Assembly: GCF_036844465.1 (NCBI RefSeq) | Contig: NZ_DAIUFW010000009.1 | Span: 4,839 to 68,838 of the forward strand | Length of the DNA stretch: 64,000 bases | Reading direction: 5' to 3' | From: Methylobacillus sp. | Lineage (GTDB): Bacteria; Pseudomonadota; Gammaproteobacteria; Burkholderiales; Methylophilaceae | In this document: piece after piece, positions 5,732 to 63,033 of the stretch | Numbering within the stretch: position 1 is the first letter of the stretch | How the letters are laid out: the number at the start of each line of letters is the position of its first letter | The notes under the pieces: model-generated | What the model saw: only the letters and a program-made list of their open reading frames with translations | The model's database searches: none | What the model was told of the DNA's origin: nothing | Position numbers and translations under genes: made by a program

Positions 5732-6492
5732 AAAAACAACTCGCGACCTTATTTCTCTCAACGCTTTCTGCTTATGCGTTCTCAGAGAATCTCCATCCGA
5801 CATCTACCGAATACGACAGGATCAGAACGGAATCGAAAGAGCTTTTTGACAAAGCCGACGTAAAGCTTAAAGACGATGAAGCACAGCTTCGTGTCGAAGG
5901 CATGGACTCAATGAATAAGGCCATGCGGGCAGCACGGGCCCTCAAAGGCACGAATCAGCTCGGCGTTACAACCGACGCAGCAGCAAAGAAGGCTGCAGGG
6001 GAAAAGGATTTCTCTGACCTCAACGAACTCGTCAAGCGGTACGAGAGTGCACGCACCTCCGAGGCTGCGCCGACAAACTCCGACGGCACCCTCATGCTGT
6101 TTGTCTCGTTCTCAATGCCACCCGACGTTATCCGCGAGTACTCGCGGCAGGCACAAGCCGCTGGGGCAACGCTCGTGCTTCGAGGTAACTACAAGGGCGG
6201 GACGGTTCGACGCACCACGGAGCAGGCCGGCGCACTAAACGCCGGCGGTGCTGGGTGGATTATCAATCCCGAGGTGTTCACCGGCTACAAGATCGACGCT
6301 GTACCCGCGTTAGTCCTGTCCCGTGACAATCTGAATGTCGACGACGAAGGCTGTTTTCCAGTTGGCGAGTACGCCTCCGTTTTTGGAGATATATCGATCA
6401 TCGGTTCTCTCGAGAAAATATCCCAGAGCGCAACCAAGCCAGAGATTCGACAACTTGCAGCTAAGCGGCTTGCGATGATCAAGGAGAAATAG
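5728..6492 (+). CDS. trbC: F-type pilus assembly protein TrbC
   Basis: ATG 5728 overlaps the traU stop (ATGA). Signal peptide MKKQLATLFLSTLSAYA. Motifs LFVSFSMP...LVLRG...AVPALVL. Confidence 0.7.
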   Translation: MKKQLATLFLSTLSAYAFSENLHPTSTEYDRIRTESKELFDKADVKLKDDEAQLRVEGMDSMNKAMRAARALKGTNQLGVTTDAAAKKAAGEKDFSDLNELVKRYESARTSEAAPTNSDGTLMLFVSFSMPPDVIREYSRQAQAAGATLVLRGNYKGGTVRRTTEQAGALNAGGAGWIINPEVFTGYKIDAVPALVLSRDNLNVDDEGCFPVGEYASVFGDISIIGSLEKISQSATKPEIRQLAAKRLAMIKEK

Positions 6493-6494
6493 CC

Positions 6495-8708
6495 GTGTTC
6501 ATAGAGAGTGCTTTCTTCAAGTTCTTGGCAAGGTTCATGGCCTTCTGGGTTTGCTTCACGTCTGTTGTTTATGCAGTCGATCCATACTCGGAAGCAAGTA
6601 ACCTCTCGAATCTCGTCCGCCCCGGATCAACTTTTGACATCTATCAACAAGCCGAAGAAGCCCTGTCTTTTCCGGACGCAACAGCGGACGTACCGCAAGC
6701 CCTGAACTTTAGTTCGAACTTTGATCCGGGCCCTGGAGGACAAGCCCGTATCGACGCATGCGGCTCTGCAACACTCGACCCCAACAATCCCGCGCATATG
6801 GAGTGCTTTGCGGTAAATACCTCAACGCAAGCCAATATCGACATGTCTACAGGGCCGGCTCCAACCGATCCAATCTTTACGCAATCTAGGGTAATCCAAC
6901 AGAGTCCGAATTCGCAATTGAGCACGATGGGCTTCGGAATTACCGCTTCGCCGAACGCATGTGTTGCTGAGGATTTCGAACGAGCTACTTTCCGGACTGA
7001 GACATGTAATGAGGGGCGGATCGTTGATGAAGCCTGGTGCTCTTACAACCTGAATGTCACCGTGTCGAGCGTTAATCGTAGCTGCACCCGCCCTGTTGGG
7101 GGTTCATGCTCGATTACGCCCCCGGCCCCGATACAGGTATGCACGAACACGTGGCAAAAACCCCTTGAAACGACATGCCGTATGGAAAGCCCGGTTTGTA
7201 CCAAAACTGGCACGACCTGCGTTGGCGGCTATTGGGACCCGATCTACGAAACGCGCAACATCGTCGATCCGGAAACTGGCGCGGTTACCGGTACTGAACA
7301 AGTTCAAGTCGGCGAAACCTGGGTATGTACGACCGAGCAAGACACCTACGTTTGCAGGACTATCTCCTCCGAAACATGGGTGAATAATTGCGGCCACCTC
7401 GAGTCAAATCCACGGTGCGACTTTGAGAATGAGCCTGACCCGGATAACCCTGGCCTTGTCCCTGAGGCGCACTGCAGCGATTACGGCACACGAATTATCA
7501 ACGGCCGTGCAATAACACGGTGCTGGTCGCAATCGTTACCCTTCGGATGCATCACTGATCGATTCGAGGAAGGCTGCGGCGCGATGGAGGCGCTCTCTTG
7601 CCGGCAGCAAGGAGAGCGGACATGTGCCAAGACATTCCCCACGACGAAGCGTGGACTTGATGGAGTAATTGTCGCAAACCCATACGCGAGCCAGTGTGAA
7701 ACCTTCGCAAGGAACTATGAGTGCCCTCTTGATAGCGCATCTATTCCAGTCGACAACTGCTCATCACAGCAAGTTTGCGTTACTGATAACAATGGAGTTA
7801 CAAAATGCTGGGACTCCGGATACACATCTAACCAAGAAGATTTCCTGCAGGCTGCCGCAGCAATGGAGTTTGCAAAAGAGGCCGGCACTTATCTGAATCC
7901 AGACACGTTCCGCCTCTTTTCAGGAAGCTCTGAGCGATGCCGTTACCGTAACAAAGGCATCTCAATCAAATGTTGCCAAAGTTCAGGTGGAGCTCAAAGC
8001 AATAACGATGTTGTCTCTGAGTTCGTATCGGCGGCTACGGTATCAGCTGTAATGACGGGCATCGACTACGTCTGGTACAAGTCTGCGCCCTACGTTTATG
8101 ACTTCATGTACAGCTCGACTCAACCATTTCTTTCTGCGGTTGGTATGGAGGGATGGATTTCCAATAGCTGGACAAATGTCACTTTCAATCCGAGCTTCAG
8201 TTTCTATGGATTCACCTTTGCCTATAACATGCCGACCATTCCTCTTATCGGCGGGGCTATACCTGGCACAACGACATTGGCGACAAATATCGCTGGAACC
8301 AATTTCAATCTTTACTTCAACCCGTACCTCTTCGCCTTGATGGTATTGCTTTACATCTACTTCGAATTGACATCCTGCACAGAAGCCGAGCAGATGCTTT
8401 CAATGAAGAAAGGCGCGGGGCTATGTACTCAAGTCGGGAGGCGGTGTAGCGGTCGCATTCTAAAGACCTGCCGACGCAGCTACTGCTGCTACAACTCAGA
8501 GCTGGCGAAGATTATCGGTGACGCGGGCAGAGCACAGCTGGGAACTGGCGCAAGCTGCGCAGGCCTTACCGCTGCCCAGTTCCAGAGCCTTAACTTCGGC
8601 GCAATCGACTTCAGTCCTTTCTACGCCGATTTGATGAATTCGACGGGGCAGCCTGGGGCAGACTTCGCTCGCCAACGCGTAATTGAATCAATGAGCGGGT
8701 ACGACTAA
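6495..8708 (+). CDS. traN: F-type mating-pair stabilisation protein TraN
   Basis: 737 aa with a GTG start and a signal peptide. Very Cys-rich, with C-terminal CCQSSGG and SYCCYNSELAKII motifs. Confidence 0.8.
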   Translation: MFIESAFFKFLARFMAFWVCFTSVVYAVDPYSEASNLSNLVRPGSTFDIYQQAEEALSFPDATADVPQALNFSSNFDPGPGGQARIDACGSATLDPNNPAHMECFAVNTSTQANIDMSTGPAPTDPIFTQSRVIQQSPNSQLSTMGFGITASPNACVAEDFERATFRTETCNEGRIVDEAWCSYNLNVTVSSVNRSCTRPVGGSCSITPPAPIQVCTNTWQKPLETTCRMESPVCTKTGTTCVGGYWDPIYETRNIVDPETGAVTGTEQVQVGETWVCTTEQDTYVCRTISSETWVNNCGHLESNPRCDFENEPDPDNPGLVPEAHCSDYGTRIINGRAITRCWSQSLPFGCITDRFEEGCGAMEALSCRQQGERTCAKTFPTTKRGLDGVIVANPYASQCETFARNYECPLDSASIPVDNCSSQQVCVTDNNGVTKCWDSGYTSNQEDFLQAAAAMEFAKEAGTYLNPDTFRLFSGSSERCRYRNKGISIKCCQSSGGAQSNNDVVSEFVSAATVSAVMTGIDYVWYKSAPYVYDFMYSSTQPFLSAVGMEGWISNSWTNVTFNPSFSFYGFTFAYNMPTIPLIGGAIPGTTTLATNIAGTNFNLYFNPYLFALMVLLYIYFELTSCTEAEQMLSMKKGAGLCTQVGRRCSGRILKTCRRSYCCYNSELAKIIGDAGRAQLGTGASCAGLTAAQFQSLNFGAIDFSPFYADLMNSTGQPGADFARQRVIESMSGYD

Positions 8709-30019: not shown

Positions 30020-31174
30020 ATGAGCCAACCTCGAGACACTTTTGCAGACATCGGAAGCGTGACCTATCGGATTCGACAGGCGGCAGCGATGCTTGGCGTC
30101 ACAGATGTCACGCTCCGGGGTTACTCGGAGAACTTCGACATTCGGAGAGCTTCCGATACGAACCCTGGGGCACCCCCCATCCGGATCTATGAGCCCTCGC
30201 AGATTTTCGAGATTGCGCTCTGGCGACGGATGCAGGGTTATCTCAAGGTTCCTCAGACTCATGGAAAGCCGTTCGTCATTGCTGTGACCGTGTGCAAAGG
30301 CGGGACAGGCAAAACAGTCACCTCTGTTGAGCTGGCCGTTGAGCTTCAACTACTGGGCTTTCGGACGCTGCTGATCGACCTTGACTCTCAGGCCTCCGCA
30401 ACACAAATCATGGGTTACGAACCTGACATCATGATGGAGGAAGCCGAAAGTTTCGGCTTGAGTGAGAAGGCAGTGGTCCGCGAAACGCTCGCGAATGTCC
30501 TTGAGGCATACGTGAGCTCGCAGCAAGGCGGCCGCGTTAGGCAGATGCCCTATGACCTGAAAAGTCTCATCAAAAAGCCCTTTGGGGAACACGGGCCTCA
30601 TCTCGTCCCCGCCGACACATTCCTGAGCAGCATCGAACGGACTCTTCTTGTCGCGACAGGAAACCGTGAGCGGTTCTTGCGCAACATGCTCGATGAAGCT
30701 GCAAAGGGTGCGATCCCCGGTTTTGACACCAGCATCTATGACGCAATCATTCTCGACTGCCCACCTACCGTTTCGACTACCACATCCTCGGGAATGGTCG
30801 CCGCTGACCTGCTGATTGCGCCGATACGGATGGATGTTTTTTCGATCAAGGGCATCAGCAAGATGATTTCCGAGATTCATGTGTTTAAGGATGAATGGAG
30901 CTTGAAGCCTGAACTCATCATTCTCCCGACGCACTACTCTACAAATGTCGGTCGGATCAGCCGCATGCGGCGTGAGCTCGAGACTTACAGCGACAGCGTT
31001 TCGCCCTACGTGATCTCTGTAAGTGAAGACCTGCCAAACTCTCAAGAGCGCAGCATGCCGCTCTCTATCACGAAACCGACATCAACATCGGCTTGCGAGT
31101 ACAGGGCGTTCGCGGCTTACATCCGCGAAAAGATTGTCGACAGGCTCTCGAAAACCAAAGGGGATAGGAAATGA
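30020..31174 (+). CDS. parA: ParA partition ATPase (type Ia, with N-terminal HTH)
   Basis: N-terminal HTH YRIRQAAAMLGVTDVTLRGY and deviant Walker A KGGTGKT. Confidence 0.85.
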   Translation: MSQPRDTFADIGSVTYRIRQAAAMLGVTDVTLRGYSENFDIRRASDTNPGAPPIRIYEPSQIFEIALWRRMQGYLKVPQTHGKPFVIAVTVCKGGTGKTVTSVELAVELQLLGFRTLLIDLDSQASATQIMGYEPDIMMEEAESFGLSEKAVVRETLANVLEAYVSSQQGGRVRQMPYDLKSLIKKPFGEHGPHLVPADTFLSSIERTLLVATGNRERFLRNMLDEAAKGAIPGFDTSIYDAIILDCPPTVSTTTSSGMVAADLLIAPIRMDVFSIKGISKMISEIHVFKDEWSLKPELIILPTHYSTNVGRISRMRRELETYSDSVSPYVISVSEDLPNSQERSMPLSITKPTSTSACEYRAFAAYIREKIVDRLSKTKGDRK

Positions 31175-32052
31175 AAACGCGGCAACGCGATCCAGTCGGC
31201 CTGGTGCTTCGCACTATGCCCGCCGATAGCGAGTTCGGAAGGCCCGCGGAAGGACTCCCTGCCGTAACCGCAAAGGTCAGCCTGGACCTCCTGGAAGAAG
31301 TGCCCGGCCGACGCAGGAAGCTCACCGACGAGCAGTACCAGCAACTCGTGGAGAACCTGGCGAACAATCCTCTTGCGACGCCGGTAACTGTCCGCGCAAT
31401 CGATAACGGCCGTTTCGAGATCATCGCCGGCCACAACCGTGTGGCCGCATACCGAGAGCTCGAGCGCACAGAGATCGACGTTCACGTCGTCGATCTCGAT
31501 GATGACGGCGTCGAGCGGGCAGCCTTCTACTCGAACCTGCTATCGAACGAACTCCCTGACTACCACAGATATCTTGGGTTCAAGGGACGGATGGCATCGA
31601 CAGGCAAGAATCAAACGGAGATTGCTGAAGAGGCCGGGATCAACAAAAGTATTGTTTCTCGCCTCATGGCGTTCGCATCACTACCGTCTTTGGCATTGAA
31701 TGTCATTGAGAGGAACCCAGAGAAATTCGGCGTCAACGCGATTTCGGAGCTGTCGAAGCTCGTTGAAAGCCATCCCCCTGAGGCGATCGCACAAGCCCTT
31801 GAAAAAGTCGCCTCTGAAGAGATCACGATGAAACATGCGATCTCTCTGATCAAGGCTTCAGGGAAGATCAAAGAAAATAAGAAAGCAGACCCAGAGATCA
31901 TCACGATTCGAAGAGGCAATACAACATTCTGCTCTGTTCGGAGGGCCGGATCTTCGCTTCGACTGGACTTCGCTAATGGATCAGTCACGGAGGCGCTGAT
32001 GGCCGAGATCGAAGATCTGATCAAAAGACACGCAAAAGCCACTGGTGACTGA
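31171..32052 (+). CDS. parB: ParB-like partition / DNA-binding protein
   Basis: ParB N-terminal domain (EIIAGHNRVAAYREL) and HTH (QTEIAEEAGINKSIVSR). Overlaps the parA stop. Confidence 0.75.
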   Translation: MKTRQRDPVGLVLRTMPADSEFGRPAEGLPAVTAKVSLDLLEEVPGRRRKLTDEQYQQLVENLANNPLATPVTVRAIDNGRFEIIAGHNRVAAYRELERTEIDVHVVDLDDDGVERAAFYSNLLSNELPDYHRYLGFKGRMASTGKNQTEIAEEAGINKSIVSRLMAFASLPSLALNVIERNPEKFGVNAISELSKLVESHPPEAIAQALEKVASEEITMKHAISLIKASGKIKENKKADPEIITIRRGNTTFCSVRRAGSSLRLDFANGSVTEALMAEIEDLIKRHAKATGD

Positions 32053-32271
32053 GTTGCTACTAGCAACTGCATGATAATTAACGATTTTTTATTTTTAGGT
32101 TAGCAGAGATGGTAAATCGGATACTACGGCGCCCCCCAGCGGACGCCCGCATCACCCGGCCTCTAAAGTCCTGCTGACCATCACGCAACCCCGCCCCCGA
32201 GCGGGGTTTCGCACGTTTATAGACTGGAGATCGCGATGTAGCGACCAAAACAAAGACACATCCTGCTGACA

Positions 32272-32384
32272 AAAGAAAAACCCGGTCTCGGGGCCAACCG
32301 AGCCGGGCTTTCTTGAAAAGGGTGATGCTTTTCTGGTGTCTGATACCAAACCGGGGCCAACCGGTCAGACCTCACCGCCAACTG
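32272..32384 (-). ncRNA. Predicted counter-transcript (antisense RNA) to the leader/start region of rep-like gene 1
   Basis: Minus-strand promoter TTGACG-16-TACCAT (32418-32391). Two hairpins with UUGGCC loops. Intrinsic terminator at 32307-32272, with a tttttctttt tail. Confidence 0.35.
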
Positions 32385-33805
32385 AGGTGAATGGTATCAA
32401 ACAGCCGGGAAACGTCAAGGGATTCTATTGCCTTGAAAAAGGCGAACCCGGACTTTTTCACGTGACTACTCCAATTCGCCTCAATGCGGGCCGAGGGGAC
32501 TGCGACGGACCACGTCCGCGCTTTCTCCCTGCCCCCCTGATCAACGCACGAGCCGCGGTGATGAACCGCCTGTACTGCCAGGACCTGTCGCAGACCGCGC
32601 GCCAGGTGCTTTACGGTGTGCTGGCCTTTTTTAAGCTTGGCCATCCTGAGCAACCTGTTTTTGCCTTTCGTGACACGCTTCAAGCTGAAACCCTGCTCAG
32701 TAGTCGCTCCAAACTTTTTCGTGGCCTTCAGGAAGCCGAAGACAAGGGCTACATCCGTCGTGAGCAAGTCCGCAACTGGGGCCGTCGATCCTATGGGCAG
32801 TTCAGTCGAAGTCACATCTACGTCCTCGACAAGACATTGTTGATGCTCGGGCTGGCAGGCTCTCGGATACTCTCGACCTCGCCCGCATCAACGCAGGCCT
32901 CCTCGATTGAGGACGAACAGCACACAGAAGTTGGAGTACCCCCATCCTCCTCCGCTGAGTTCGACGCCCTCCCCTCCTCTGTCGATTCACTCTCCAGTGC
33001 CGCCGGACTGCTCGAGATCGATGCTTCGCTTGAAACCTGCGAGGCACAGCACCAGGCAGAGATCCTCGAGGCGTGGGAAGACGGTCGCGCCGACTGGGAG
33101 GATGACGAAACAGGCTGGGAAGCAGACACGCCCCCCCGGGAGCCAACGACCGTCACCCCGTACGCCACTTATCCACAGGAGCCGTGTCTCACAGTGACAC
33201 ACGGTATACAAGAGAGTGAACCTACCCTTGATCTACAGCTAAAAGGACAACTTCCCACGCGCGAATCCCTACCCGACCCGTCGTCGCTGAAGGATTCTTC
33301 TGAAAACATCGATCCCCACACCCGTCTGCCCCACGACGTGACGCCACTCATGAAGCTTGGTGTCTCCAAGACGCTGATCTGCACCCTGATGGCCCACGCC
33401 AAGCGCCAAGGTCAGCAAGGTGCGCTTGGCGCAGCAGTGAAGCTCTTCTGGCAGCACATCCATGGGCTAAGAGGCAGATCGGTCTTTGCCTATCTGCGCA
33501 AAGTCCTCAGCCAGAAACGCGACTACGCCTACCTGCTCAAGCAGCAGTACGCGAACGAAATCGATGGCGTACTCACTGCCTCAGCCACTGCGCGGCTGTC
33601 GGAGAAGCTGGCGGTCTTGCTTGCACGCGGGGACGGCTTCCAGGTTCGCAACGCCGAAGGTCAATCAATTGGGACGCTGCGCGCAAACGGTGAAACTGGA
33701 TACGTGGAGGGGTTTGATCCCAAGCGCGGCCGCGTTGCGCTGCCGGCTAACCTGCGCTTTATGCAGGCAGTGGAAGAAGGTCGCTTGCATCTGCGCCCGT
33801 GCTGA
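32336..33805 (+). CDS. Rep-like winged-helix protein, paralog 1 (putative replication initiator)
   Basis: Homologous along its full length to the 34217-35521 ORF. GTG start with no good SD; an alternative GTG lies at 32462. Positioned directly after parAB. Confidence 0.45.
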   Translation: MSDTKPGPTGQTSPPTEVNGIKQPGNVKGFYCLEKGEPGLFHVTTPIRLNAGRGDCDGPRPRFLPAPLINARAAVMNRLYCQDLSQTARQVLYGVLAFFKLGHPEQPVFAFRDTLQAETLLSSRSKLFRGLQEAEDKGYIRREQVRNWGRRSYGQFSRSHIYVLDKTLLMLGLAGSRILSTSPASTQASSIEDEQHTEVGVPPSSSAEFDALPSSVDSLSSAAGLLEIDASLETCEAQHQAEILEAWEDGRADWEDDETGWEADTPPREPTTVTPYATYPQEPCLTVTHGIQESEPTLDLQLKGQLPTRESLPDPSSLKDSSENIDPHTRLPHDVTPLMKLGVSKTLICTLMAHAKRQGQQGALGAAVKLFWQHIHGLRGRSVFAYLRKVLSQKRDYAYLLKQQYANEIDGVLTASATARLSEKLAVLLARGDGFQVRNAEGQSIGTLRANGETGYVEGFDPKRGRVALPANLRFMQAVEEGRLHLRPC

Positions 33806-33819
33806 TCCAACTCGAACTA

Positions 33820-34137
33820 TCAGGCGATGGCTTGAATTCCATTTTTCTTGACGACTGTGAGCAGCCGCAGCGCCGGTCCACCCGGCTTCTTGACGCCACG
33901 CTCCCAGTCCGAAATCAAATTCTTACTGACATTCAGGTAGCGGGCAAAAACCGGCTGAGACAGGTGCTCACGCTCGCGCAACGCACGAATCTCATCGGGC
34001 GACAAAGCCTCAACGGACGTGAGGCACGCTTCGTCAAACTCGCGCATGGTGCGCTTGTCGACTGCGCCAATCTCGGAGAGCGCTTCCATTGTCTCGTGGA
34101 TAGCGCCGAGTGCTTCACTGCGGTAGTTCTTCGTCAT
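33820..34137 (-). CDS. XRE-family HTH protein of the MqsA/HigA/YiaG antitoxin-like type (no toxin partner)
   Basis: LSQPVFARYLNVSKNLISDWERGVKKPGGPALRLL. SD ggaga upstream. Confidence 0.65.
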   Translation of the reverse strand: MTKNYRSEALGAIHETMEALSEIGAVDKRTMREFDEACLTSVEALSPDEIRALREREHLSQPVFARYLNVSKNLISDWERGVKKPGGPALRLLTVVKKNGIQAIA

Positions 34138-34216
34138 TTAACTGTGTCTCCGAAAACTGGCCTTTATCGATCAACTCCGCCACATAGATTCATGCATGAG
34201 GCTTATTGGCTCTCAA

Positions 34217-35521
34217 TTAAGCCGCTACGATCCGACGTAAGTGCCCGGCTGCAAGTGCTTCGAGAAACTCTGCGTTCATCCGGCCGTATCGCACCACGTC
34301 TCCCGGCCTATGAACACGCAGAAGTCCGTTTGCTTCGACTTGAATCATCGTCCCTCCTTCGCCCCTGAAAAGCTGCCCCTCGAGCTCGTCGCACTTGATC
34401 TCAACGTGTCGCGCAGCTTCAGACTGCGCCCGCTTGATCGCTTCAGTTTGGGCCTTATTCGACGCGACCCGTGCGAAGTCAGTTGGCTTGTTGATCATGG
34501 CACGAAGGTATTTGAAGACAGATCTGCCTTGCAGTTTCAGCGCATCGATTCGAGACTTCGCAAGCTTCCAGATCGACCCAAGGGCTCCAGTCTTGTCGGC
34601 CTCTCTGGCAAGTCGCATGAGATAAGCAATGGTCGGCTTGTTCAAGCCATAGTCAAACAAGGCGGTCAGCTCGACTGGTAAACGGCTTGACGGGTCTATC
34701 TGGTTTTGAAGTTTTTCAGAAAAGTCCCCTGATGACCTGCCGGTTGATCTTGCACTGGCGGTTCTGGGTTGTTCTCTTATGAGTTGAGGTTTAGTGGGAC
34801 GTTCACTCTCATGTATACCGAGGGTCAAATTGACCGACGGCGCCTGTGGATAAAATTTTTCGAGGGAATGTGCGTCGCTGTCGTCGCGCACTTCCGTGGC
34901 AAAACGCGATTCTGGGGCGGCTAGCGCCTCGAATGGTTCGTCGGGATAGGGTGGGCTGTCTAAATGCTTTTCGTCGTCTCCTGCGCCTTCTTCTGCGTCC
35001 AGAATCAGATCGGTGACGGGGACTGCTGCTTGGATGGCCTCCCATGCCTCGATAGCATCAAGCTGGTCTTGCGAGGGGTCGATCTGTGGGGCAGGGCAGA
35101 TGAGGTCAAGTTCAAGCAGGCAACGATTCGTCAGCCATGTTTTGGAATAAGCGAACTGTCCATGGCGAGCTGCGTCGCGTCGTCGCCATTGCTCTCTGAC
35201 CAGGTAGCCGCGATCGGAGAGTTCTCGAATGCCGCGACTTAGCGTTTCAACGCTGCCCAGATGGCACTCCTTGCGTAGGACTTCTCTTTCAGGCCACAAA
35301 GGCTGATCGAGCTTCCTGATATTCAGGAAAGTGAGGAGCCCCGACAGCGTGCGCCGGGCAAGGGTGCTCAGGTCTAGAAATTTGAGCGAATCGAAGACGC
35401 GCGCTTTAGCGTCGACGAGGAGCTTGGGAAGCCGCCGTGGCTGTGAAGACAGCGGGGCAGCAGAGTATGAGGAGGCCACAAAAGACGGTCCAAGAGTTCG
35501 ACTTTTCCCTTTTTCTGGCAA
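34217..35521 (-). CDS. Rep-like winged-helix protein, paralog 2
   Basis: TTG start. Shares blocks with paralog 1: PRRLPKLLVDAKARV, GYLVREQ, LGIHESERPT, IDPSSRLP, GALGS, GRSVFKYLR. Confidence 0.45.
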   Translation of the reverse strand: MPEKGKSRTLGPSFVASSYSAAPLSSQPRRLPKLLVDAKARVFDSLKFLDLSTLARRTLSGLLTFLNIRKLDQPLWPEREVLRKECHLGSVETLSRGIRELSDRGYLVREQWRRRDAARHGQFAYSKTWLTNRCLLELDLICPAPQIDPSQDQLDAIEAWEAIQAAVPVTDLILDAEEGAGDDEKHLDSPPYPDEPFEALAAPESRFATEVRDDSDAHSLEKFYPQAPSVNLTLGIHESERPTKPQLIREQPRTASARSTGRSSGDFSEKLQNQIDPSSRLPVELTALFDYGLNKPTIAYLMRLAREADKTGALGSIWKLAKSRIDALKLQGRSVFKYLRAMINKPTDFARVASNKAQTEAIKRAQSEAARHVEIKCDELEGQLFRGEGGTMIQVEANGLLRVHRPGDVVRYGRMNAEFLEALAAGHLRRIVAA

Positions 35522-35538
35522 AAAGTCGACAGAAGCCC

Positions 35539-35566
35539 TTGACGCGTAATTTGCACTTGCTAAGAT
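35539..35566 (+). promoter_or_regulatory. Sigma70-like promoter divergent from rep-like gene 2
   Basis: TTGACG (35539-35544), a 16-nt spacer, then TAAGAT (35561-35566). Confidence 0.45.
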
Positions 35567-35572
35567 AGCTCC

Positions 35573-35708
35573 ATCGTTGTGGGATTGGATTTATCGGCGC
35601 CAACCGATTTTTCTTAGCAAGTACAGATCACGTATCACACGTAATCGCAAGTTGTACACATAAGCCCTGGGCTCGAGTTCGTACCTCGATCCCAGGGCTT
35701 TGTGTTTT
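35573..35708 (+). ncRNA. Predicted small RNA antisense to the upstream leader of rep-like gene 2
   Basis: Lies downstream of the promoter above. Hairpin 35593-35608 has loop CGCCAA. A strong terminator (35662-35700, 16-bp stem with 1 mismatch) is followed by tgtgtttt. Confidence 0.35.
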
Positions 35709-35868
35709 CAATGTCTGATTTTCTTCGCTAGATGGTTTCTCGCAGAAATTCTAATCGGTCTGATTTTCTGTATTCTTTTGGCCTAAGAAGGCGCGTTACC
35801 GATTCTATCAGTTAGCTTATGTCGACGGAATCCTTTTACAAAGCAATCTTCTTTGAAGGAAATTGAAT

Positions 35869-36312
35869 CTATTTTGCGTCGATAACGACTTTGGTTTGCA
35901 CCTTTTCGCGAAGTAGGGACCGGTCAGCATTTTTGTGATGTGCATAGCCATTCAGGATCGCACCATCGTGTATCACAATCGTGCCGTAGCTCACTTCCCC
36001 AGTGACGTTGGCAGTCCCGTACAGGTGAACTTCCCGAGCGCGAATGTCACCTTGAACTGTTCCGGCCACAAATACGCGCTCAGCGAGGATTGAACCAAAG
36101 ACCTCTGATTCTGCGTGCAACAGAACGACGCCTGATCCGTCCGCGATCGTGACGTCGCCCAGCACGCGGCCGTGAATCTTGATTCCCGCCTGGAGGTCCA
36201 TAGCTCCCTTGACGGTCACACCCTTCGCGATCAGAGAAGTGATGCCAAGACCTTGGGCTGTCTCATGAGAAGTTTGCTTACGGTCTTTCCCTTTGCCTGG
36301 AAGTTTGAACAT
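35869..36312 (-). CDS. Bactofilin
   Basis: Repetitive beta-helix pattern (VTVKGAMDL.AGIKIHGRVLGDVTI..., VFGSILAERVFVAGTVQGDIRAREVHLYGTANVTGEVSYGTIVIHDGAILNG). ATG 36312 has SD gagg; an alternative GTG at 36324 overlaps the upstream stop. Confidence 0.8.
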   Translation of the reverse strand: MFKLPGKGKDRKQTSHETAQGLGITSLIAKGVTVKGAMDLQAGIKIHGRVLGDVTIADGSGVVLLHAESEVFGSILAERVFVAGTVQGDIRAREVHLYGTANVTGEVSYGTIVIHDGAILNGYAHHKNADRSLLREKVQTKVVIDAK

Positions 36313-36320
36313 GGGGCGCC

Positions 36321-37121
36321 TCACTCGAGTACGTAGATTCGTTGGTCGGTGATGACCAAGCCTTCTTCTGGGCTGATTCGTAGGACCTTTCCGTCGAGAC
36401 CTGCTGCAGTCTGCCCAGCTCGTACGGACTTGCCACTCGAGTCCATAATCTCGCTTTCTCCCTTGAATTGAATGCCAGCAGCCTGTTTGCTGATGACGCG
36501 CATCGGCAGCGAGGTCTCGTCGATTGTTGAGGTCTGCGTTGGTGTAGGGGCGATGGGCGGCACGACCGTTTGAGCCGGGCGCGGGGGAGGAGGAGCGATT
36601 GTGGCTACGGACGGTTGAGGAGCTGCTTGTCTGGCAGGCATCGCTACTTGCGGTTTTTTTTCAACAGGTTTCTGAGGTGTTGTTTTCGTCGCGGCTTCGG
36701 AGCGTGGAGACTCCTCAATCGCACTCATTGCGTTCCCGATCAGCGGCAGCAGAGCGGCAAGCGCGGTTTCAAGTTGCTTCGTGCGTGCCTCGAGGCTTGA
36801 GACGCGATCCTGGTTGGCTTCGAACAGGGCCTTGTATGTTTCTTCCCGGTCATCAATTGAGGCGTGTAGCGCATCAAATGCATCCTGACGAACCACATCA
36901 ACAAGGGGTTGCGAGGACTGATGGACAGCACTCTGCTCTGCTGGCCGAGTCGTGGCGACGGCTGCAAACCATGCAGCGGTAGCCACAGCTACCATGGAGA
37001 TGACCAACGATGCAATCGTGATCAGCCTCAGTCGCCCGGGTGATACGAGCTCGGCATCGATAACGCGATCACTGTCCTCAGAGCCTACCCCTAGCGAACG
37101 CTCAATTTCGTCGTACCTCAT
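36321..37121 (-). CDS. Bitopic membrane protein with coiled coil, Pro-rich linker and C-terminal beta-rich domain
   Basis: TM segment LITIASLVISMVAVATAAWFAAV and Pro-rich stretch PPPPRPAQTVVPPIAPTP. ATGA overlap with the upstream gene. Confidence 0.6.
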   Translation of the reverse strand: MRYDEIERSLGVGSEDSDRVIDAELVSPGRLRLITIASLVISMVAVATAAWFAAVATTRPAEQSAVHQSSQPLVDVVRQDAFDALHASIDDREETYKALFEANQDRVSSLEARTKQLETALAALLPLIGNAMSAIEESPRSEAATKTTPQKPVEKKPQVAMPARQAAPQPSVATIAPPPPRPAQTVVPPIAPTPTQTSTIDETSLPMRVISKQAAGIQFKGESEIMDSSGKSVRAGQTAAGLDGKVLRISPEEGLVITDQRIYVLE

Positions 37122-38098
37122 CAGTCCTGCTCCTTACGTTCCGGTGTGTTATTTGCTGTCCTAAGCGACCCGATCAAGGCCTCAATGCTTGATAGCGCTG
37201 TAATTTTTCCATTGGCTTCCGCAAGCTGTTCTCTCAGTCCGGCGCTCTCCTTGCGGCAATCTCGCAGTTCTTCCCGTGCTTTTTTCTCATTTATTTGAGC
37301 GCCTTCAAGCGCTTGTTTAAGCGAGCTTTCTTTCCTGACGAACTCCTGTCGAAGGTCGTCTGTTTGCTTCAAAAGATGCTTTCGGTCGCCGTCTGCTCGG
37401 TCATCGGCAAGCTTCATCTGCCGCTCGGCTTCCGCCCTTAGCTCGGCAACCAAGGCTTGGTGACGCTCAGTCAGGGAGGCGAGCGCGACCTCGTGACGTT
37501 CCGTCGCTGATGCGAGCAAGCGATCACCACGCTCGCGTTCAGCCTGGACGCTGCCCTCAAGTTCGCCAATCCGTCTCTGGTAATGGGCGATCTCGGCGTG
37601 CAGGTTCTCGTTGCGCTCCGTGAGGTGCTGGACCTCTTCTGTGAGCGCCTGGATGCGCTCTGTGCGCTCAGCACACATACGCTCGAGGCCGGCAAGCTCC
37701 TTCTGCAGCAGTAGAGCCTTCTGTACGAAGTCATCTGCGGTCGCCCGTAGGGCCTTGTTTTCTTCCTCGAGCGCGTCTTCCTTACGCTCCAGGTCAGCCC
37801 GAGCTGCCTCGAGATTCTTGGTGGCTCCGTCCAGGGCCAGATCCCATGATGTACGCGCGAACTCATTGAGCAGATCGACCAAGGGGTCAGGCACTCCTGG
37901 CATGCGTGAGAGCGTGAGCTTTTCGTGCAGGTTTGCCGCTTCTGTCTTGACCTCGGCAATGAGCTTCCTGACCACATCTGCGCCGCCTCTGCGGCCGATT
38001 TTGGTGTAGATCGCCTCGAATGTTGGATTTCCTCCTTCGGCGAGAACTTCGAAGAAGGCGTTCCGAACGTCCTCGAAGGAAACTGCGGTGGCTCTCAT
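37121..38098 (-). CDS. KfrA-like DNA-binding coiled-coil protein
   Basis: KfrA_N-like N-terminus (VSFEDVRNAFFEVLAEGGNPTFEAIYTKIGRRGGADVVRKLIAEVK) followed by about 250 aa of heptad-rich coiled coil. Confidence 0.65.
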   Translation of the reverse strand: MRATAVSFEDVRNAFFEVLAEGGNPTFEAIYTKIGRRGGADVVRKLIAEVKTEAANLHEKLTLSRMPGVPDPLVDLLNEFARTSWDLALDGATKNLEAARADLERKEDALEEENKALRATADDFVQKALLLQKELAGLERMCAERTERIQALTEEVQHLTERNENLHAEIAHYQRRIGELEGSVQAERERGDRLLASATERHEVALASLTERHQALVAELRAEAERQMKLADDRADGDRKHLLKQTDDLRQEFVRKESSLKQALEGAQINEKKAREELRDCRKESAGLREQLAEANGKITALSSIEALIGSLRTANNTPERKEQD

Positions 38099-38968: not shown

Positions 38969-39179
38969 GTCCCGTTGTCCTCAGATTTGTGTGGATAAGT
39001 GTGTGGGAAAGGGCCGGCAGCCCTTGTCGCCCCTTGGGTTCGTCGGTTGCTGCATTTTGCGTCAGTGCGCTCACTGGATTCTCGATCTGATTGTAGTGCT
39101 AAGGACTCTGATTGTATCGGATTTTTCCAAACGTTTTTCGGACGTCAAACGTCCAAAACTTATTAGTTATGGTCAGTTG

Positions 39180-52474: not shown

Positions 52475-54379
52475 ATGCTCAAGCAGAACCGTAAGGAGGC
52501 GCTTCGCCTCGTAGCAACCATGTTGGGGCGTCGCTTCGGCGTCCAGGTCGTCTTCGGCAACATTAAAACAGCAGCGACGACGGGCAAGGTGATCTATCTG
52601 CCCAACCTCGCAACGACTGGCTCAGAGGAGGACATGATCCTTCTGTACGGGCTGGTCGCGCATGAGGCGGCGCACTGCCGCTTTACCGAGTTCAAGGACA
52701 GCTCGAAAGGGAACGTCCTTGTTCGCGCCCTCGATAACGTGTTCGAGGACATACGGATCGAGTTGGCATTGGCCAGGATCTTTCCTGGGGCGGCTCGAAT
52801 GCTCTTCGATGCGGCCAACGGTCTCGCAGCGCGGGGCATCCTTGATGCTCCACAGCAAGACGAGGAGTATCAGCCGGCCGACATCTTGTGCAGGGCGCTT
52901 GTGATGGGGCTTCGCAGTCGGCACCTGAAGCAGCACTGCTTAGATGAAATGGCTGGCCAGTGGCGGACTCTTGCCGAGGACGTGTTTGGTGACGAGCTGA
53001 TCGAGGCGGTTTTCGAACTTGCTGACCGCTCTGCAACGCTCACATCCACGGACGAGGCTTCGGCCTTGGCGTGGGAAGTCTATGAGCTACTGGAGACTTC
53101 TGCCGAGGAGAAGGAAAAGCAGGAGGAACAACAGAAGCAAAAGCAGCAGTCCAAGTCATCGCAAGATGAGGAGGACGAATCCCATGTCCCCTCTCAGGCA
53201 GGGCAGGACGAAGATGAGGGTGATTCGTCGCCGTCGTCTGGGGCAGGTGATGAGGAGGAGCAGGATTCGTCCTCGTCGGGTTCTGGTGAGGAAGATGAGA
53301 ATGGGGAGGATTCGTCGCCGGGATCGTCTGACGATCGGGGCGAAGATGATTCCTCTAACTCAGATGAGTCTCAGGGCGACCAGGGTGATTCTGAGGCAGG
53401 TGACTCTGACGAAAGGGGGGAGGCGGACGCTGGCGATTTTTCCTCTCAAGGGGAAGAAGGTGACTCGGGCGAGCAAGCTGCTGCGATGCGCCAGGCGCTC
53501 AAGGCGCAGTCGGTCAGTTCGGTCAGCATGGAAGACATGCTGAGGCAACAAATGGGTGCCAATCAGGTTATGGGCGCCGGTGCTCGGACGCAACACGCAA
53601 GTCGAACCAATGGCGTCAAGGACCAGGGGCAGGTCAGGGCGTATCTGAAGCGGCACGAGCTCAAGGCGAAGCTGGGCACCCGCCTTGCAAGCCTGATCGA
53701 GTCGACCGTGGAAGAATCGTTGTGGGACGGTTACACCGGGCGCAAGCTCTCTCACAGTGCACCGGAGAGGCTTTCGCGTGGTGACCTGAAAATCTTCCTC
53801 AAGAAGGAAGAAACCGCAGGCACCAACACTGCGGTCGCCCTGTTGGTCGATTACTCGGGGTCGATGTGGACAACGATGCCGCTCACCGAGGGGGGCTCAA
53901 GGGCTGCGGGCGGGCAAACGACCGCACAGGAAGCCGCCTATGAGACGCACTTCGCGCTAGCTTCAGTGCTGTCGACCTACGAGGTGCCGTTCCTCTCGAT
54001 CGCGTTCGCCAATCACGTGTGCGTGCTCAAGGAGTTCGATGAGCCGCTCTCTGCTCACCGTTGGGATGATGGTTCTTCGGGCGACACCGCGACGGGCGAT
54101 GCGGTTGAAGAAGCTCTTATCCGTATGACGGAGCGCGAGGAGGAAAAGCGCATCCTGGTTGTCGTCACAGATGGCGAGCCCAACGATCACGATTCGCTGA
54201 TGGCTGGGTGCAGGTTTGCCCGCCAGAACGGAATCCAGATCGCGGTCGTGTTCATTGGCTCAATGGGCCACGCCCTCGAATCAATGCTCAACGAAGAGGA
54301 GGTTGCCTTTGACCGGGCAATGAGTGCTGACCGGCTTTCGCAAGCGGTCTTTGGTGCTGTCGCGAAAGCGGTAGCCTGA
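52475..54379 (+). CDS. CobT-like protein with acidic repeat linker and C-terminal vWA domain
   Basis: N-terminal CobT-like region, a D/E/S-rich linker (aa ~215-335), and a vWA MIDAS motif LLVDYSGSM...TDGEPND. Confidence 0.75.
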   Translation: MLKQNRKEALRLVATMLGRRFGVQVVFGNIKTAATTGKVIYLPNLATTGSEEDMILLYGLVAHEAAHCRFTEFKDSSKGNVLVRALDNVFEDIRIELALARIFPGAARMLFDAANGLAARGILDAPQQDEEYQPADILCRALVMGLRSRHLKQHCLDEMAGQWRTLAEDVFGDELIEAVFELADRSATLTSTDEASALAWEVYELLETSAEEKEKQEEQQKQKQQSKSSQDEEDESHVPSQAGQDEDEGDSSPSSGAGDEEEQDSSSSGSGEEDENGEDSSPGSSDDRGEDDSSNSDESQGDQGDSEAGDSDERGEADAGDFSSQGEEGDSGEQAAAMRQALKAQSVSSVSMEDMLRQQMGANQVMGAGARTQHASRTNGVKDQGQVRAYLKRHELKAKLGTRLASLIESTVEESLWDGYTGRKLSHSAPERLSRGDLKIFLKKEETAGTNTAVALLVDYSGSMWTTMPLTEGGSRAAGGQTTAQEAAYETHFALASVLSTYEVPFLSIAFANHVCVLKEFDEPLSAHRWDDGSSGDTATGDAVEEALIRMTEREEEKRILVVVTDGEPNDHDSLMAGCRFARQNGIQIAVVFIGSMGHALESMLNEEEVAFDRAMSADRLSQAVFGAVAKAVA

Positions 54380-55018: not shown

Positions 55019-56011
55019 ATGTCACAAACGACAGCAGTAACGGAGAAGCTTGGCAACATCTTTGGGTCTGCCTTCAAGGACCCCCAGGCAGCTCAAAGGG
55101 CGGTTCCTGTAAGGACATCGGGGCCGTTCACGCCCGCAGATAACCCGTCCCATAGCTTCACCGAAGCTCATGCACGCCTGTTGGTGGCATGGGTGTGGGC
55201 CGGGGTGAGCAAGAATCTGATGCTGACTGGTCCTACTGGATCTGGGAAGTCCTCGATGGTCGAGGTCTTCGCGGCTCGCACCGGGTGGCCGCTCTTTCGT
55301 GTTGCTTGCCACGGGCGAATGGAGTTTCAGGAGCTCGTCGGCGCCTGGCGCATGGCGTCCGTACCTGGTGGCGGCCAAGAGTGGAAGTGGGCTGACGGCC
55401 CACTACTGGCAGCCATGAAGGTAGGGGGTATCCTGCTTCTGGATGAAGGCAACTTCCTCCATCCAGCCGTAGTCGGTGGCTTGAACACGATCCTGGATGG
55501 GGCGCCGCTCTTGGTGCCTGAAACGGGTGAAATGGTTCAGCCGCACCCGGATTTTCGGGTCGCATTCACGGCTAACGCTGTGGCGCACGACATGGATGCC
55601 GCTAACTACCGGGGCATTCAGCGGCAGAGCATTGCTTTGCTAGATCGCTTCCTTGTGGGGACGGTGGACTACCTGACCCCGATGGAGGAAAGCAAGATTC
55701 TGCACGCGAAGTGCAAGCATCTTGCCGGTCCTTTCATCCAGCTCCTCGTTGAGGTGGCTGGGGACGTTCGGGAAGCCTTCAAGCAGGGCGAAATGACCAC
55801 TACCATCTCGACCCGCGGCCTCATCCGCTGGGGAAAGATGTTGCTGGCGAATGGTCGTTCGCTTGCGGATGCCAGTGCTCGAGGCGCCACGGAAGAAGTG
55901 TTGGCTTGCCTCAACGGAGCCCTCCACGCCGCTGTTACGGCGCGATCACCGGAAGCTGAGCGGGAAGCCATCGAGAAGATCGTCTCTGCTCGATACGCCC
56001 CTGTGAAGTGA
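55019..56011 (+). CDS. MoxR/CbbQ/CobS-like AAA+ ATPase
   Basis: Walker A GPTGSGKS and Walker B ILLLDEGN. AAA_5-like architecture. Confidence 0.85.
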   Translation: MSQTTAVTEKLGNIFGSAFKDPQAAQRAVPVRTSGPFTPADNPSHSFTEAHARLLVAWVWAGVSKNLMLTGPTGSGKSSMVEVFAARTGWPLFRVACHGRMEFQELVGAWRMASVPGGGQEWKWADGPLLAAMKVGGILLLDEGNFLHPAVVGGLNTILDGAPLLVPETGEMVQPHPDFRVAFTANAVAHDMDAANYRGIQRQSIALLDRFLVGTVDYLTPMEESKILHAKCKHLAGPFIQLLVEVAGDVREAFKQGEMTTTISTRGLIRWGKMLLANGRSLADASARGATEEVLACLNGALHAAVTARSPEAEREAIEKIVSARYAPVK

Positions 56012-61262: not shown

Positions 61263-61305
61263 AAAGCCCGCTTTGCCTCTGTTTTCAGGGGCTGGCGGGC
61301 TTTTT
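61263..61305 (+). terminator. Intrinsic terminator
   Basis: aaagcccgc ... gcgggcttt followed by ttt. Confidence 0.7.
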
Positions 61306-61319
61306 ACATTCAGCTTGAT

Positions 61320-61359
61320 GCATCTCCCGGTTGCAGCACTAACCAACCAGGAGAAGGAA
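61320..61359 (+). promoter_or_regulatory. Conserved leader module
   Basis: GCATCTCCCGGTTGCAGCACTAAC. Pairing 61321-61330 / 61347-61356 gives 8 of 10 bp. Confidence 0.6.
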
Positions 61360-63033
61360 ATGCAAACCGTTCAGATCTCGGAAATTGTCGTTGGCAACAA
61401 CCCGCGGAAGTTCTTTGACCCTGCGGAGATGGAGGAGCTGACCGCTTCGATCCGCGAGAAGGGGGTCATCCAGCCGATTCTCGTTCGTCCCTTGCTGGAC
61501 GGCGGGTACCAGGTTGTCGCTGGTGGTCGCCGCTACGCGGCAGCTAAGGCGGCACATGGGGATGACTACCCCATGCCCGTTGTCATCAAGGATCTGGACG
61601 ACGATGAAGCCGAAGAACTGGCGCTCATCGAAAACGTTCAGCGGGCGGACATGTCGCCAGCAGAGGAAGCTGAGGCGGCCGCGAAAATCCTGGCTCGCTC
61701 AGAAGGTGATCGGGACGATGCAGCGCGGCGCCTTGGCTGGAGTCGGGCCACCCTCGACAAACGCCTGGGCCTGATGAACGCCACGGACGCAGTTCGCTCT
61801 GCGCTCGCTGAGCGTCGCATCAAGTTGGGCCACGCCGAGTTGTTGGCGGGTCTTCCGCGACCAAAGCAAGACGCTGTTCTTGGGGCACTTCTCAAGGCTC
61901 CCGAGCTTGTCGGTGTCGGTGAGTTCAAGCAGCAAATCCAGAAGCTCGCCAACGCGTTGTCGACGGCGGTATTCGACAAGACGGAGTGTGCGCAATGCCC
62001 CCACAGCAGCGGGAATCAGCAAGCGCTCTTTGGGGAGGCCGTCGAAGATGGCCATTGCACCAACCGTGAGTGCTGGGACGGAAAGACCGAAGCGGCGCTC
62101 GACGAGATTCGCAAAGGGCTTATCGAGGACTTTCCTGAAGTCAGGATTGTTCGCCCCGGTGAGAACTTCACCGTCATCAAGCTCGTCGCCGAAGGTGGTT
62201 CTGGCGTCGGTGATGTTCAGGCTCAGGCCTGCCGTTCCTGCGGCAAGTTTGGGGCGGCCATCAGCGCGGTGCCCGGCAAGGTGGGCAAGGTCTTCAAGGA
62301 CTTGTGCTTCGACTCTGCATGTAACGCCGAGAAGGTGAAGGCGAATCATCAGGCGATCGTTGCAGCCGCTCAACCGGCTCAACCCGCTGCGCCTACCCCG
62401 GGAGCAACAACGACTGGCTCAGCGAGCAACACATCGCCCGCTGCGAAACCTGTAACTCAGAAGAAGGCTGCTGAGGTGCAGGACTCCACGCGGGTCAAGG
62501 AGTATCGGGCGAAGGTCTGGCGATCTGCATTGGCCAAGCACCTCTACATGAATCCCGAAGTTGGGGAGCGTGTTCTGCTTGCCCTTTGCATGAGTGGGGA
62601 TGCGCGTCACATCAGCGCAACTCAGCTTGGCAAAGCGTTCGCCAAGCTCACTCAAGGGACGTCGTCCAGTCTGTCTTTGACAGTGGCGCTGACCCAGGTC
62701 GGTGAAGCAAGCGACGAGGTTGTCTCCAAGCTGAAGGTCATGTTGCCGGCCGCAACCGCAGAGGGGCTCGAGGAGCACAAGGTGGTCGCGCTGCTCAACG
62801 AGCTGAAGGTGAACCTCGCGGATCACTGGACGCTTAACGCCGACTACCTGGGGTTGCTCACCAAGAGTGAGATCAAGGTCGTGGCCGAGCAAATCGGGCT
62901 TGCCGCACATATGGGCAAGGATCTGGACAAGGCTCTCGGGGAGAAGAAGGACGAGTGCGTCAAGAAGCTGTTGGCCGTATCGGGCTTTGACTATGCCGGG
63001 AAGCTTCCGGCGAACGTGATGTGGAAGGCGTAA
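61360..63033 (+). CDS. ParB-family protein (PRTRC-associated type)
   Basis: ParB N-domain IQPILVRP...YQVVAGGRRYAAAKAA. A Cys cluster sits mid-protein. Followed by PRTRC E- and C-like genes. Confidence 0.8.
   Translation: MQTVQISEIVVGNNPRKFFDPAEMEELTASIREKGVIQPILVRPLLDGGYQVVAGGRRYAAAKAAHGDDYPMPVVIKDLDDDEAEELALIENVQRADMSPAEEAEAAAKILARSEGDRDDAARRLGWSRATLDKRLGLMNATDAVRSALAERRIKLGHAELLAGLPRPKQDAVLGALLKAPELVGVGEFKQQIQKLANALSTAVFDKTECAQCPHSSGNQQALFGEAVEDGHCTNRECWDGKTEAALDEIRKGLIEDFPEVRIVRPGENFTVIKLVAEGGSGVGDVQAQACRSCGKFGAAISAVPGKVGKVFKDLCFDSACNAEKVKANHQAIVAAAQPAQPAAPTPGATTTGSASNTSPAAKPVTQKKAAEVQDSTRVKEYRAKVWRSALAKHLYMNPEVGERVLLALCMSGDARHISATQLGKAFAKLTQGTSSSLSLTVALTQVGEASDEVVSKLKVMLPAATAEGLEEHKVVALLNELKVNLADHWTLNADYLGLLTKSEIKVVAEQIGLAAHMGKDLDKALGEKKDECVKKLLAVSGFDYAGKLPANVMWKA

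Follow-up and report, generated by a model that had tools for sequence, protein, structure and literature searches.

Convergent paralogs that may form twin plasmid replication modules, each with a putative antisense RNA, in a plasmid-like stretch of Methylobacillus DNA

Control of plasmid copy number by antisense RNA is known in the IncFII/R1 (CopA-CopT), pT181, pIP501 and ColE1-type plasmids, and plasmids with more than one replicon include IncF plasmids with FIA, FIB and FII and rhizobial plasmids with two repABC cassettes. In the repABC cassettes a counter-transcribed RNA (ctRNA) lies between repB and repC, the cognate replication origin (oriV) is included with repC, and replicons of the RepC type are said to occur in Alphaproteobacteria only (PMC7610768). 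Here we analyse 64,000 nucleotides of Methylobacillus sp. DNA (positions 4,839 to 68,838, forward strand, of contig NZ_DAIUFW010000009.1 in assembly GCF_036844465.1; this whole stretch is called the window below), in which two convergent open reading frames (ORFs), 32336-33805 on the plus strand and 34217-35521 on the minus strand, encode the proteins X1 and X2 of a family that we call X. We judge, at a rough probability of 0.68, that this locus is a mirror-image pair of plasmid replication modules, both complete and both from a single undescribed initiator family, each comprising an X protein, a long 5' leader, a terminated antisense RNA of ~115-140 nt and, inside the gene, a DnaA box accompanied by an inverted repeat and by A+T-rich sequence. 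Such modules would amount to a replicon type of Betaproteobacteria that has apparently not been described before and that resembles repABC in its workings while standing outside it.

X1 and X2 align by BLASTP over nearly their full lengths (30% identity in 438 columns, E = 8e-38). An earlier note on this DNA, made from its letters alone, had called the two rep-like ORFs homologous along their whole length, and all seven of the shared blocks it listed are present in the alignment. X1 shares 100% identity with a Methylobacillus sp. database protein and 95.5% with a protein encoded on Aromatoleum aromaticum EbN1 plasmid 1. The same note took the upstream ends of the two ORFs as their starts, and here we depart from it, as the likely starts are GTG codons further downstream: GTG 32462 for X1 (coding region 32462-33805, plus strand, 448 amino acids, in a frame open back to 32336) and GTG 35479 for X2 (34217-35479, minus strand, 420 amino acids, in a frame open back to TTG 35521). 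GTG 32336 reads CTG in the 95%-identical relative on EbN1 plasmid 1. Across homologs in related loci, which were gathered from plasmid, genome and metagenome collections and are numbered here with an L, the first in-frame start past the antisense promoter described below lies 57 nt before a conserved RFLP motif; L003 and L020 have ATG there, and X1 (32462), L015 and L017 have GTG. GTG 35479 is the sole possible X2 start in L011 and L013 and agrees with the 420-amino acid database homologs. With these starts the antisense promoters lie upstream of the coding regions, so the antisense RNAs would pair with the leaders only.

X1 directly follows the partition genes parA (30020-31174, plus strand), which encodes a partition ATPase (Pfam AAA_31, 8e-31, and CbiA, with a weak match to the NCBIfam partition RepA family), and parB (31171-32052, plus strand), which encodes the partition protein (Pfam ParB_N; NCBIfam parB_part, 1.8e-20). 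These are the first and second genes of the cassette, and at the base after the parB stop a perfect 15 bp palindrome, GTTGCTACTAGCAAC, begins (32053-32067); its exact sequence occurs once in the window, and it is a candidate parS centromere. EbN1 plasmid 1 has another palindrome at this place, and its homology with the window begins just past it. The proposal that a mirror-duplicated unit lies directly after parAB is supported, in that parAB and the palindrome immediately precede X1, and X2 is convergent with it. The order ParA, ParB, antisense RNA, initiator, with the genes on one strand and the RNA on the opposite one, is that of repABC; this applies to X1 only, since X2 is preceded, on the other strand, by a kfrA-bactofilin operon.

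This gene order is widely kept. ParB is encoded immediately upstream of X in L001-L004, L008-L013, L019, L020, L022-L025 and L027, and wherever the flanking sequence is long enough parA-parB directly precedes X, except in L005 and L014, both of which also lack the antisense RNA. The parA-parB-antisense RNA-X order recurs on plasmids of Burkholderia, Mycetohabitans and Aromatoleum and in metagenomes, while the ParA and ParB proteins of the related loci have diverged to 24-30% identity, and in many complete plasmids the cassette stands at the conventional start of the record. The named hosts of complete plasmids (Aromatoleum, Burkholderia, Cupriavidus, Mycetohabitans, Paraburkholderia, Thauera, Caballeronia and Sulfuricystis) are all Betaproteobacteria, unlike the alphaproteobacterial hosts of repABC. 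An X family gene is one of the four single-copy core genes of Mycetohabitans plasmids (PMC12696581). We note separately that L005 carries, at 4505-7215, an X1-like gene (83% identity) in a chromosomal-looking setting beside genes for RlmM, a solute-binding protein and a polyprenyl synthase; it retains the DnaA box, lacks parAB, the antisense promoter and the antisense RNA, and may be an integrated remnant.

A promoter scan of positions 31800-36000 found exactly two σ70-like sites, each antisense to the adjoining paralog and pointing away from its gene. That of antisense RNA 1 (32418-32391, minus strand) is TTGACG-16-TACCAT and that of antisense RNA 2 (35539-35566, plus strand) is TTGACG-16-TAAGAT; in both, TG precedes the -10 hexamer, and they share the -35 context CCCTTGACG and the flanking sequence AGAAnCCCTTGACG. 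In 23 of 25 homologous gene copies there is a single TTGAC[GA]-16-TAnnnT antisense promoter 82-123 nt upstream of the RFLP motif (101 nt in X1 and 102 nt in X2), against a chance expectation of 0.1-0.6 promoter-like sites per scanned region, and the promoter is also present in the distant loci L008, L009, L023 and L024 (B. glumae, Mycetohabitans and metagenomic), where it lies 39-40 nt before the ATG.

Antisense RNA 1 (32270-32390, minus strand) would be ~115 nt long, with a hairpin at 32351-32364 and a terminator hairpin whose 9-bp stem (32304-32279, minus strand) is followed by the U-run TTTTTCTTTTGT; both hairpins have UUGGCC loops. Antisense RNA 2 (35573-35712, plus strand), whose ends are predicted, would be ~140 nt long, possibly with an additional ~43-nt form, and would contain a weak hairpin at 35593-35608 with a CGCCAA loop and a following U-run, TTTTTCTT, and then a terminator with a 16-bp stem (35662-35700) and TTTGTGTTTTC. 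The predicted fold of RNA 2 is much more stable than those of shuffled sequences (z = -4.4, none of 200 shuffles as stable); that of RNA 1 is modestly so (z = -1.7). These scans agree with the earlier description of outward promoters with a shared -35 context, followed by hairpins and a terminator.

A covariance model built from ten X1-clade sequences, which RNA 1 matches at 107.9 bits, identifies this RNA antisense to X in 15 distinct loci, distant ones included. In related loci the promoter is followed, in order, by a variable hairpin, one of the type CCGG-UUGGCG-CCGG, a terminator hairpin, usually with that hexamer in its loop again, and a U-run. The two loops are usually identical within a replicon and change together between replicons. 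Over the 15 loci 93.4% of alignment cells are paired, versus 76.8% in shuffles and 30-55% in slid controls, 17 of the 22 pairs have changed on both sides, and none of 500 shuffles reaches any of the five measures used; these figures come from related sequences in an alignment fitted to the model's own structure. The stems vary with compensatory changes around loops that are kept, which is the pattern of an RNA and not of an operator, and helix 2 consists mostly of G-U pairs, valid on the antisense strand only. Together with the preservation of the promoter hexamers, their 16-nt spacing and their distance from the gene in 23 of the 25 copies and in the distant Burkholderia-type loci, these features make it very improbable that the counter-transcripts are non-functional, with the hairpins serving as bidirectional terminators or protein-binding palindromes and the promoters being operators or chance matches, even though the terminator hairpin lies between an A-run and a T-run, so that it could end sense transcription too, and both hairpins of a replicon carry one and the same loop, as could be the case for sites bound by a protein. 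The X1-type model gives no match to antisense RNA 2, and the case for the latter is made by promoter homology, position and fold stability. That each paralog faces a counter-transcript of its own, as the earlier note held, is supported by the promoter position in the 23 copies and by the covariation of RNA 1, and its claim of a duplicated antisense copy-control layout is matched in the sequence by a promoter, stem-loops and a terminator in each leader.

The putative small terminated counter-transcript in the parB-initiator spacer is analogous, and not homologous, to that of repABC, since no Rfam ctRNA matches it; there is no relevant Rfam match at E values up to 10 in positions 31500-36500 and none at gathering score across the whole window. 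A constitutive antisense promoter in the initiator leader, a short, highly structured RNA with apical recognition loops and an intrinsic terminator are also features of the R1, pT181, pIP501 and ColE1-type systems, and as in these a dose-dependent negative feedback would be expected of the X antisense RNAs. Unlike them, the X antisense RNAs have no sequence or Rfam kinship with known control RNAs (ctRNA_p42d, CopA, RNAI and others), they carry two hairpins with the same hexaloop, and their predicted target lies ~80 nt or more upstream of the X start codon.

In the mechanism we propose, the concentration of the antisense RNA would track plasmid copy number, and its apical loops would kiss the complementary loops of the X leader. 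The resulting duplex would free a leader segment (32392-32417 in X1) that is otherwise paired with 32323-32348, and X synthesis would fall, probably through occlusion of the translation start or through attenuation. In the predicted fold of the free X1 leader these two segments are indeed paired and the start codon is open, and when the antisense target, whose pairing ends ~80 nt before the start codons, is masked, the freed segment pairs across the X1 start region. The predicted effect is modest: of 19 leaders, 10 show a drop of about 0.1 or more in start-region unpairing, most others show a slight decrease or none and 3 show an increase, so attenuation or cleavage may be the means instead. 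No leader peptide or clear attenuator was identified in the leader folding analysis.

The second element shared by the two genes lies within them. The X1 element (33169-33221, plus strand) consists of a DnaA box, TTATCCACA, at 33169-33177, an inverted repeat CCGTGTCTCAC-A-GTGACACACGG at 33182-33204, and then TATACAAGAGAGTGAAC; the X2 element (34801-34853, minus strand) consists of a DnaA box at 34853-34845, an inverted repeat CCGTCGGTCAA-T-TTGACCCTCGG at 34840-34818, and then TATACATGAGAGTGAAC. Both DnaA boxes are perfect, in sense orientation and in mid-gene, and in both genes an inverted repeat with 11-bp arms begins 4 nt past the box and is followed by TATACAAGAG; the inverted repeat sequences themselves differ between X1 and X2, and no further copies of their half-sites were found. 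The box is kept in all genes of the X1/X2 clade, where it encodes YPQ in frame 2, and also in the VIHK subfamily, where it is read in frame 1 (perfect in L023, one mismatch in L024), so it is the DNA and not the peptide that is conserved. When third-codon-position identity is compared in windows along 27 distinct genes, each of the top 20 windows (identity 0.72-0.83, versus a gene mean of 0.44 with standard deviation 0.11) spans the box together with the inverted repeat and a TATAC motif. The symmetry of the inverted repeat is kept by compensatory changes (90% paired, 5 of 10 pairs changed on both sides), and a local A+T maximum lies just 3' of the DnaA box in all six genes analysed for it. 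The cumulative GC-skew minimum of the window, at 34470, falls between the two boxes, and its amplitude is equalled in 1 of 2000 block shuffles; GC skew is also shaped by gene orientation. A third perfect DnaA box, TTATCCACA, occurs outside the twin at 38990-38998 on the minus strand, near the start of a strongly positive GC-skew arm.

From these features we regard the element as a candidate origin within the initiator gene, as in repABC; the consensus DnaA box that belongs to it is a difference from repABC. X, probably as a dimer, would bind its own inverted repeat and, with host DnaA at the box, open the DNA there, within the gene that encodes it. The presence of two initiator genes, each under control elements of its own, recalls the multi-replicon plasmids, in which, as here, divergent RNAs and sites would make the modules compatible: both the inverted repeats and the antisense loops differ between the X1 and X2 modules, so no cross-inhibition is expected and the locus would hold two compatible origins 1.7 kb apart. 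Unlike the replicons of multi-replicon plasmids, the X modules are convergent paralogs with stop-to-stop spacers of 411-1413 bp, inherited as a unit in six loci, namely the window, EbN1 plasmid 1 (L001) and four metagenomic contigs (L010-L013).

A somewhat unlikely, though not far-fetched, alternative to two working modules would be a past fusion or duplication of replicons after which just one origin still works. The other module, most likely X2, would then not fire in the present host and would persist as a backup, a regulator or a factor for incompatibility or handcuffing. X2-type proteins are seen in the twin loci only (2 clusters), whereas X1-type genes also occur singly after parAB; X2 has no parAB before it, in Aromatoleum an IS1380 element lies just upstream of its leader, and its RNA is missed by the X1-type covariance model. 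Yet X2 keeps the promoter distance, a perfect DnaA box and an inverted repeat of its own, both genes are under purifying selection (ratio of nonsynonymous to synonymous divergence, dN/dS, 0.21-0.26 for X1 and 0.26-0.27 for X2), and the pair has been retained across a synonymous divergence (dS) of 0.3-0.55.

A further difference from multi-replicon plasmids is that the antisense hairpin loops of the two X modules are mutually complementary, with UUGGCG or UUGGCC occurring twice in RNA 1 and CGCCAA in RNA 2. The sequence CGGnGCCAACCG occurs three times (32289-32300, 32352-32363 and 35595-35606), each time as the apical part of an antisense hairpin. All three copies have the same absolute orientation, that of X2 being flipped relative to its gene (0 of 100 shuffles), because the X2 RNA carries the complementary loop in its homologous hairpin. 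Exact complementarity between RNA 1 and RNA 2 reaches 14 nt in L011-L013 and 9 nt in the window. The energy of the whole RNA 1-RNA 2 duplex is not above that of shuffled sequence, so any idea of cross-talk draws on the complementarity of loops and hairpins only. It is doubtful that the twin is a coupled double origin in which the RNAs titrate each other, the leaders kiss and each initiator is de-repressed by the RNA of the other module; if it were, facing origins 1.7 kb apart would be locked into joint firing or into a switch, for instance between different hosts. To our knowledge, antisense-antisense cross-talk between paralogous replicons has not been described.

A profile search places X1 and X2 in a family of 414 representative clusters, whose typical members are 320-340 amino acids long and in comparison with which X1 and X2 have an expanded acidic linker. 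The AlphaFold model of X1 has a winged helix at residues 61-175, the disordered acidic linker, and a confident helical domain with a small beta domain; the mean predicted local distance difference test (pLDDT) score is 61.7 for the full-length model and 87.8 for a model of the C-terminal domain. The N-terminus resembles the winged helices of MarR, CRP and CodY, and Foldseek with the full-length model returns generic MarR, CodY and RTP winged helices only, at E ~0.02. A generic winged helix is found in this way, and a match to a known Rep family is not. In a profile-profile comparison (hhalign) the X N-terminus aligns with residues 43-119 of RepC over 72 columns at 91.5% probability. Full-length homology to RepC was considered and rejected, as this alignment covers the N-terminal winged helix only; the C-terminal two thirds of X are unrelated to RepC, and neither X1 nor X2 matches Pfam RP-C (PF03428) or RP-C_C (PF11800). 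By sequence comparison, then, X lies outside the RepC family and has a similar DNA-binding head.

Among 103 distant family members, weak Pfam matches are to HTH_36 (44 of 103), RP-C (13 of 103), RepL (8 of 103) and also DnaD_N; X1 and X2 have no match to Rep_3 or RepA_C/TrfA, and neither family is among the 25 commonest in the 103. Some members are named "replication protein" or "replication protein O" in the databases, a likeness to the HTH_36 and "replication protein O" proteins that reflects the N-terminal helix-turn-helix (HTH) only, X1 and X2 being below every Pfam and NCBIfam threshold; no relation of the X locus to the lambda O origin repeats was seen. The locus also differs from the iteron-type Rep_3/RepA replicons in that X has no Rep_3 domain and no cluster of 17-22 bp direct repeats was found in positions 31900-36000. 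The rep-like identity given to the two proteins earlier is supported indirectly: linkage to parAB, the RepC-like winged helix, the DnaA box with its inverted repeat, the position of the GC-skew minimum and the B. glumae plasmid considered below speak for it, and a direct match to any Rep family is missing.

These comparisons bear on whether X is an initiator at all. It could be a winged-helix regulator of transcription or a partition accessory protein, the box a DnaA-dependent regulatory or roadblock site, and the true origin and initiator could lie elsewhere; the best structural and sequence matches are, after all, to regulators of the MarR, CodY and CRP types, a classical Rep gene stands beside X on some plasmids, iterons were not found, and the DnaA box is absent from part of the family. 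We nevertheless think this unlikely. The X N-terminus aligns specifically with the DNA-binding domain of RepC, no classical Rep family is present among the 31 scanned window ORFs of at least 230 amino acids, and the annotation of the complete 80.6-kb Burkholderia glumae plasmid p81s4p lists no rep gene besides X. The GC-skew minimum falls inside the locus, initiator genes are typically controlled by a structured RNA made antisense to the leader from a strong promoter, and the gene order is that of repABC (PMC7610768).

Several observations count against reading the locus as two replication modules. X1 and X2 match no family in Pfam, NCBIfam or a PDB sequence search, and Foldseek with the C-terminal domain model gives no credible PDB fold match. 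In the literature searched, with most subscription journals outside its scope, we found no account of the X family, its antisense RNA or the twin, and no report of a family member tested for replication. The promoter scan of 31800-36000 finds no sense promoter for X1 or X2 at its threshold. Classical initiator genes do occur nearby in some relatives: the metagenomic loci L024 (1-368) and L025 (1-368) have a Rep_3 gene immediately before parA-parB-X, and on Cupriavidus necator pHG1 (L007, 6459-7826) a classical replication initiation gene is convergent with the X homolog, which has neither the antisense RNA nor the DnaA box. The expectation of a family-wide DnaA box had to be rejected: with up to 1 mismatch allowed, neither the box nor the inverted repeat is present in L021 or in the family members of Burkholderia, Mycetohabitans and pHG1, and only ~69 of 164 representatives show the peptide signature of the box, which suggests that it is restricted to the closer clades. 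A repeat search of 31900-36000 finds no iterons and only short families of two or three copies. To these are to be added the want of covariation support for antisense RNA 2, because only near-identical relatives of it are available, the uneven start-region unpairing across the 19 leaders, and the limits given above to the covariation and GC-skew figures.

The window is plasmid-like. It encodes F-type transfer genes, topoisomerase III, parA, parB, a KfrA-like protein, bactofilin, a tyrosine recombinase and a primase. In the parB-X1 spacer a G+C-rich hairpin of the form CCCCGC...GCGGGG (32187-32209, plus strand), read from the sequence, is kept in relatives; its counterpart in L006 is flagged as a plus-strand terminator, and it is possibly a parAB terminator or attenuator. 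The parB-X spacer of Mycetohabitans pBRH02 (L008, 4385-4575) contains two copies of a ~40-nt unit, CAACTCATTGATTTTTAACGATTCCCC.CTGGGGA, and an A+T-rich stretch of the window at 32079-32087 contains TTAACGATT; these are possible centromere or origin repeats in members without an intragenic DnaA box.

Unlike in repABC, the X unit is duplicated around variable cargo. Between the window's paralogs, 80 nt downstream of X2, lies an orphan XRE/MqsA-like HTH gene (33820-34137, minus strand; Pfam HTH_3, and NCBIfam MqsA family at 1.5e-9, below cutoff), and a search between the paralogs found no toxin ORF adjoining it. In its place EbN1 plasmid 1 has a DUF1778/GNAT toxin-antitoxin pair and YggL, so the X1-X2 spacer appears to be a cargo slot. 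The leaders of both paralogs, by comparison, are ~99% identical between the window and EbN1 plasmid 1, a higher identity than that of the X1 gene itself. On the X2 side this ~99% identity extends through the A+T-rich upstream leader or promoter region (35713-35815, minus strand) up to ~35815, and past the equivalent point, beyond the X2 leader, the IS1380 element of EbN1 plasmid 1 is inserted. An exact 12-nt direct repeat, GTCTGATTTTCT, at 35713-35724 and 35758-35769, 45 nt apart and upstream of the X2 leader, may be an X2 promoter or operator.

The minus-strand operon that reads toward X2 (35869-38098) encodes a KfrA-like coiled-coil protein (37121-38098), a Pro-rich protein (36321-37121) and bactofilin (35869-36324). 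It faces X2 as parAB faces X1 and may be a second maintenance system. Elsewhere in the window, a second large ParB-like protein of 586 amino acids with ParB_N and HTH_ParB domains is encoded at 61273-63033 on the plus strand; no ParA adjoins it among the large ORFs, and genes for a CobT/VWA protein (52475-54379) and a MoxR-like AAA_5 ATPase (55019-56011) are nearby.

Many of the large plasmids of Betaproteobacteria have no recognised initiator, among them those of B. glumae, B. gladioli, Mycetohabitans, Aromatoleum and Thauera, and possibly others that have been reported without repA. If our reading is correct, these plasmids use an initiator family of ~400 representative clusters that is absent from Pfam and is wired like a repABC cassette, to which the X1/X2 and VIHK clades would add an origin-like element inside the initiator gene. 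This would be a new replicon type for plasmid typing and for the prediction of incompatibility, its antisense RNA would be a new structured RNA family for Rfam, and its members would be candidate single-copy vector backbones for Betaproteobacteria. The DnaA box kept in two reading frames is a clean case of a DNA element that constrains protein sequence, and the conserved twin offers a natural test case of how two related replicons coexist on one molecule.

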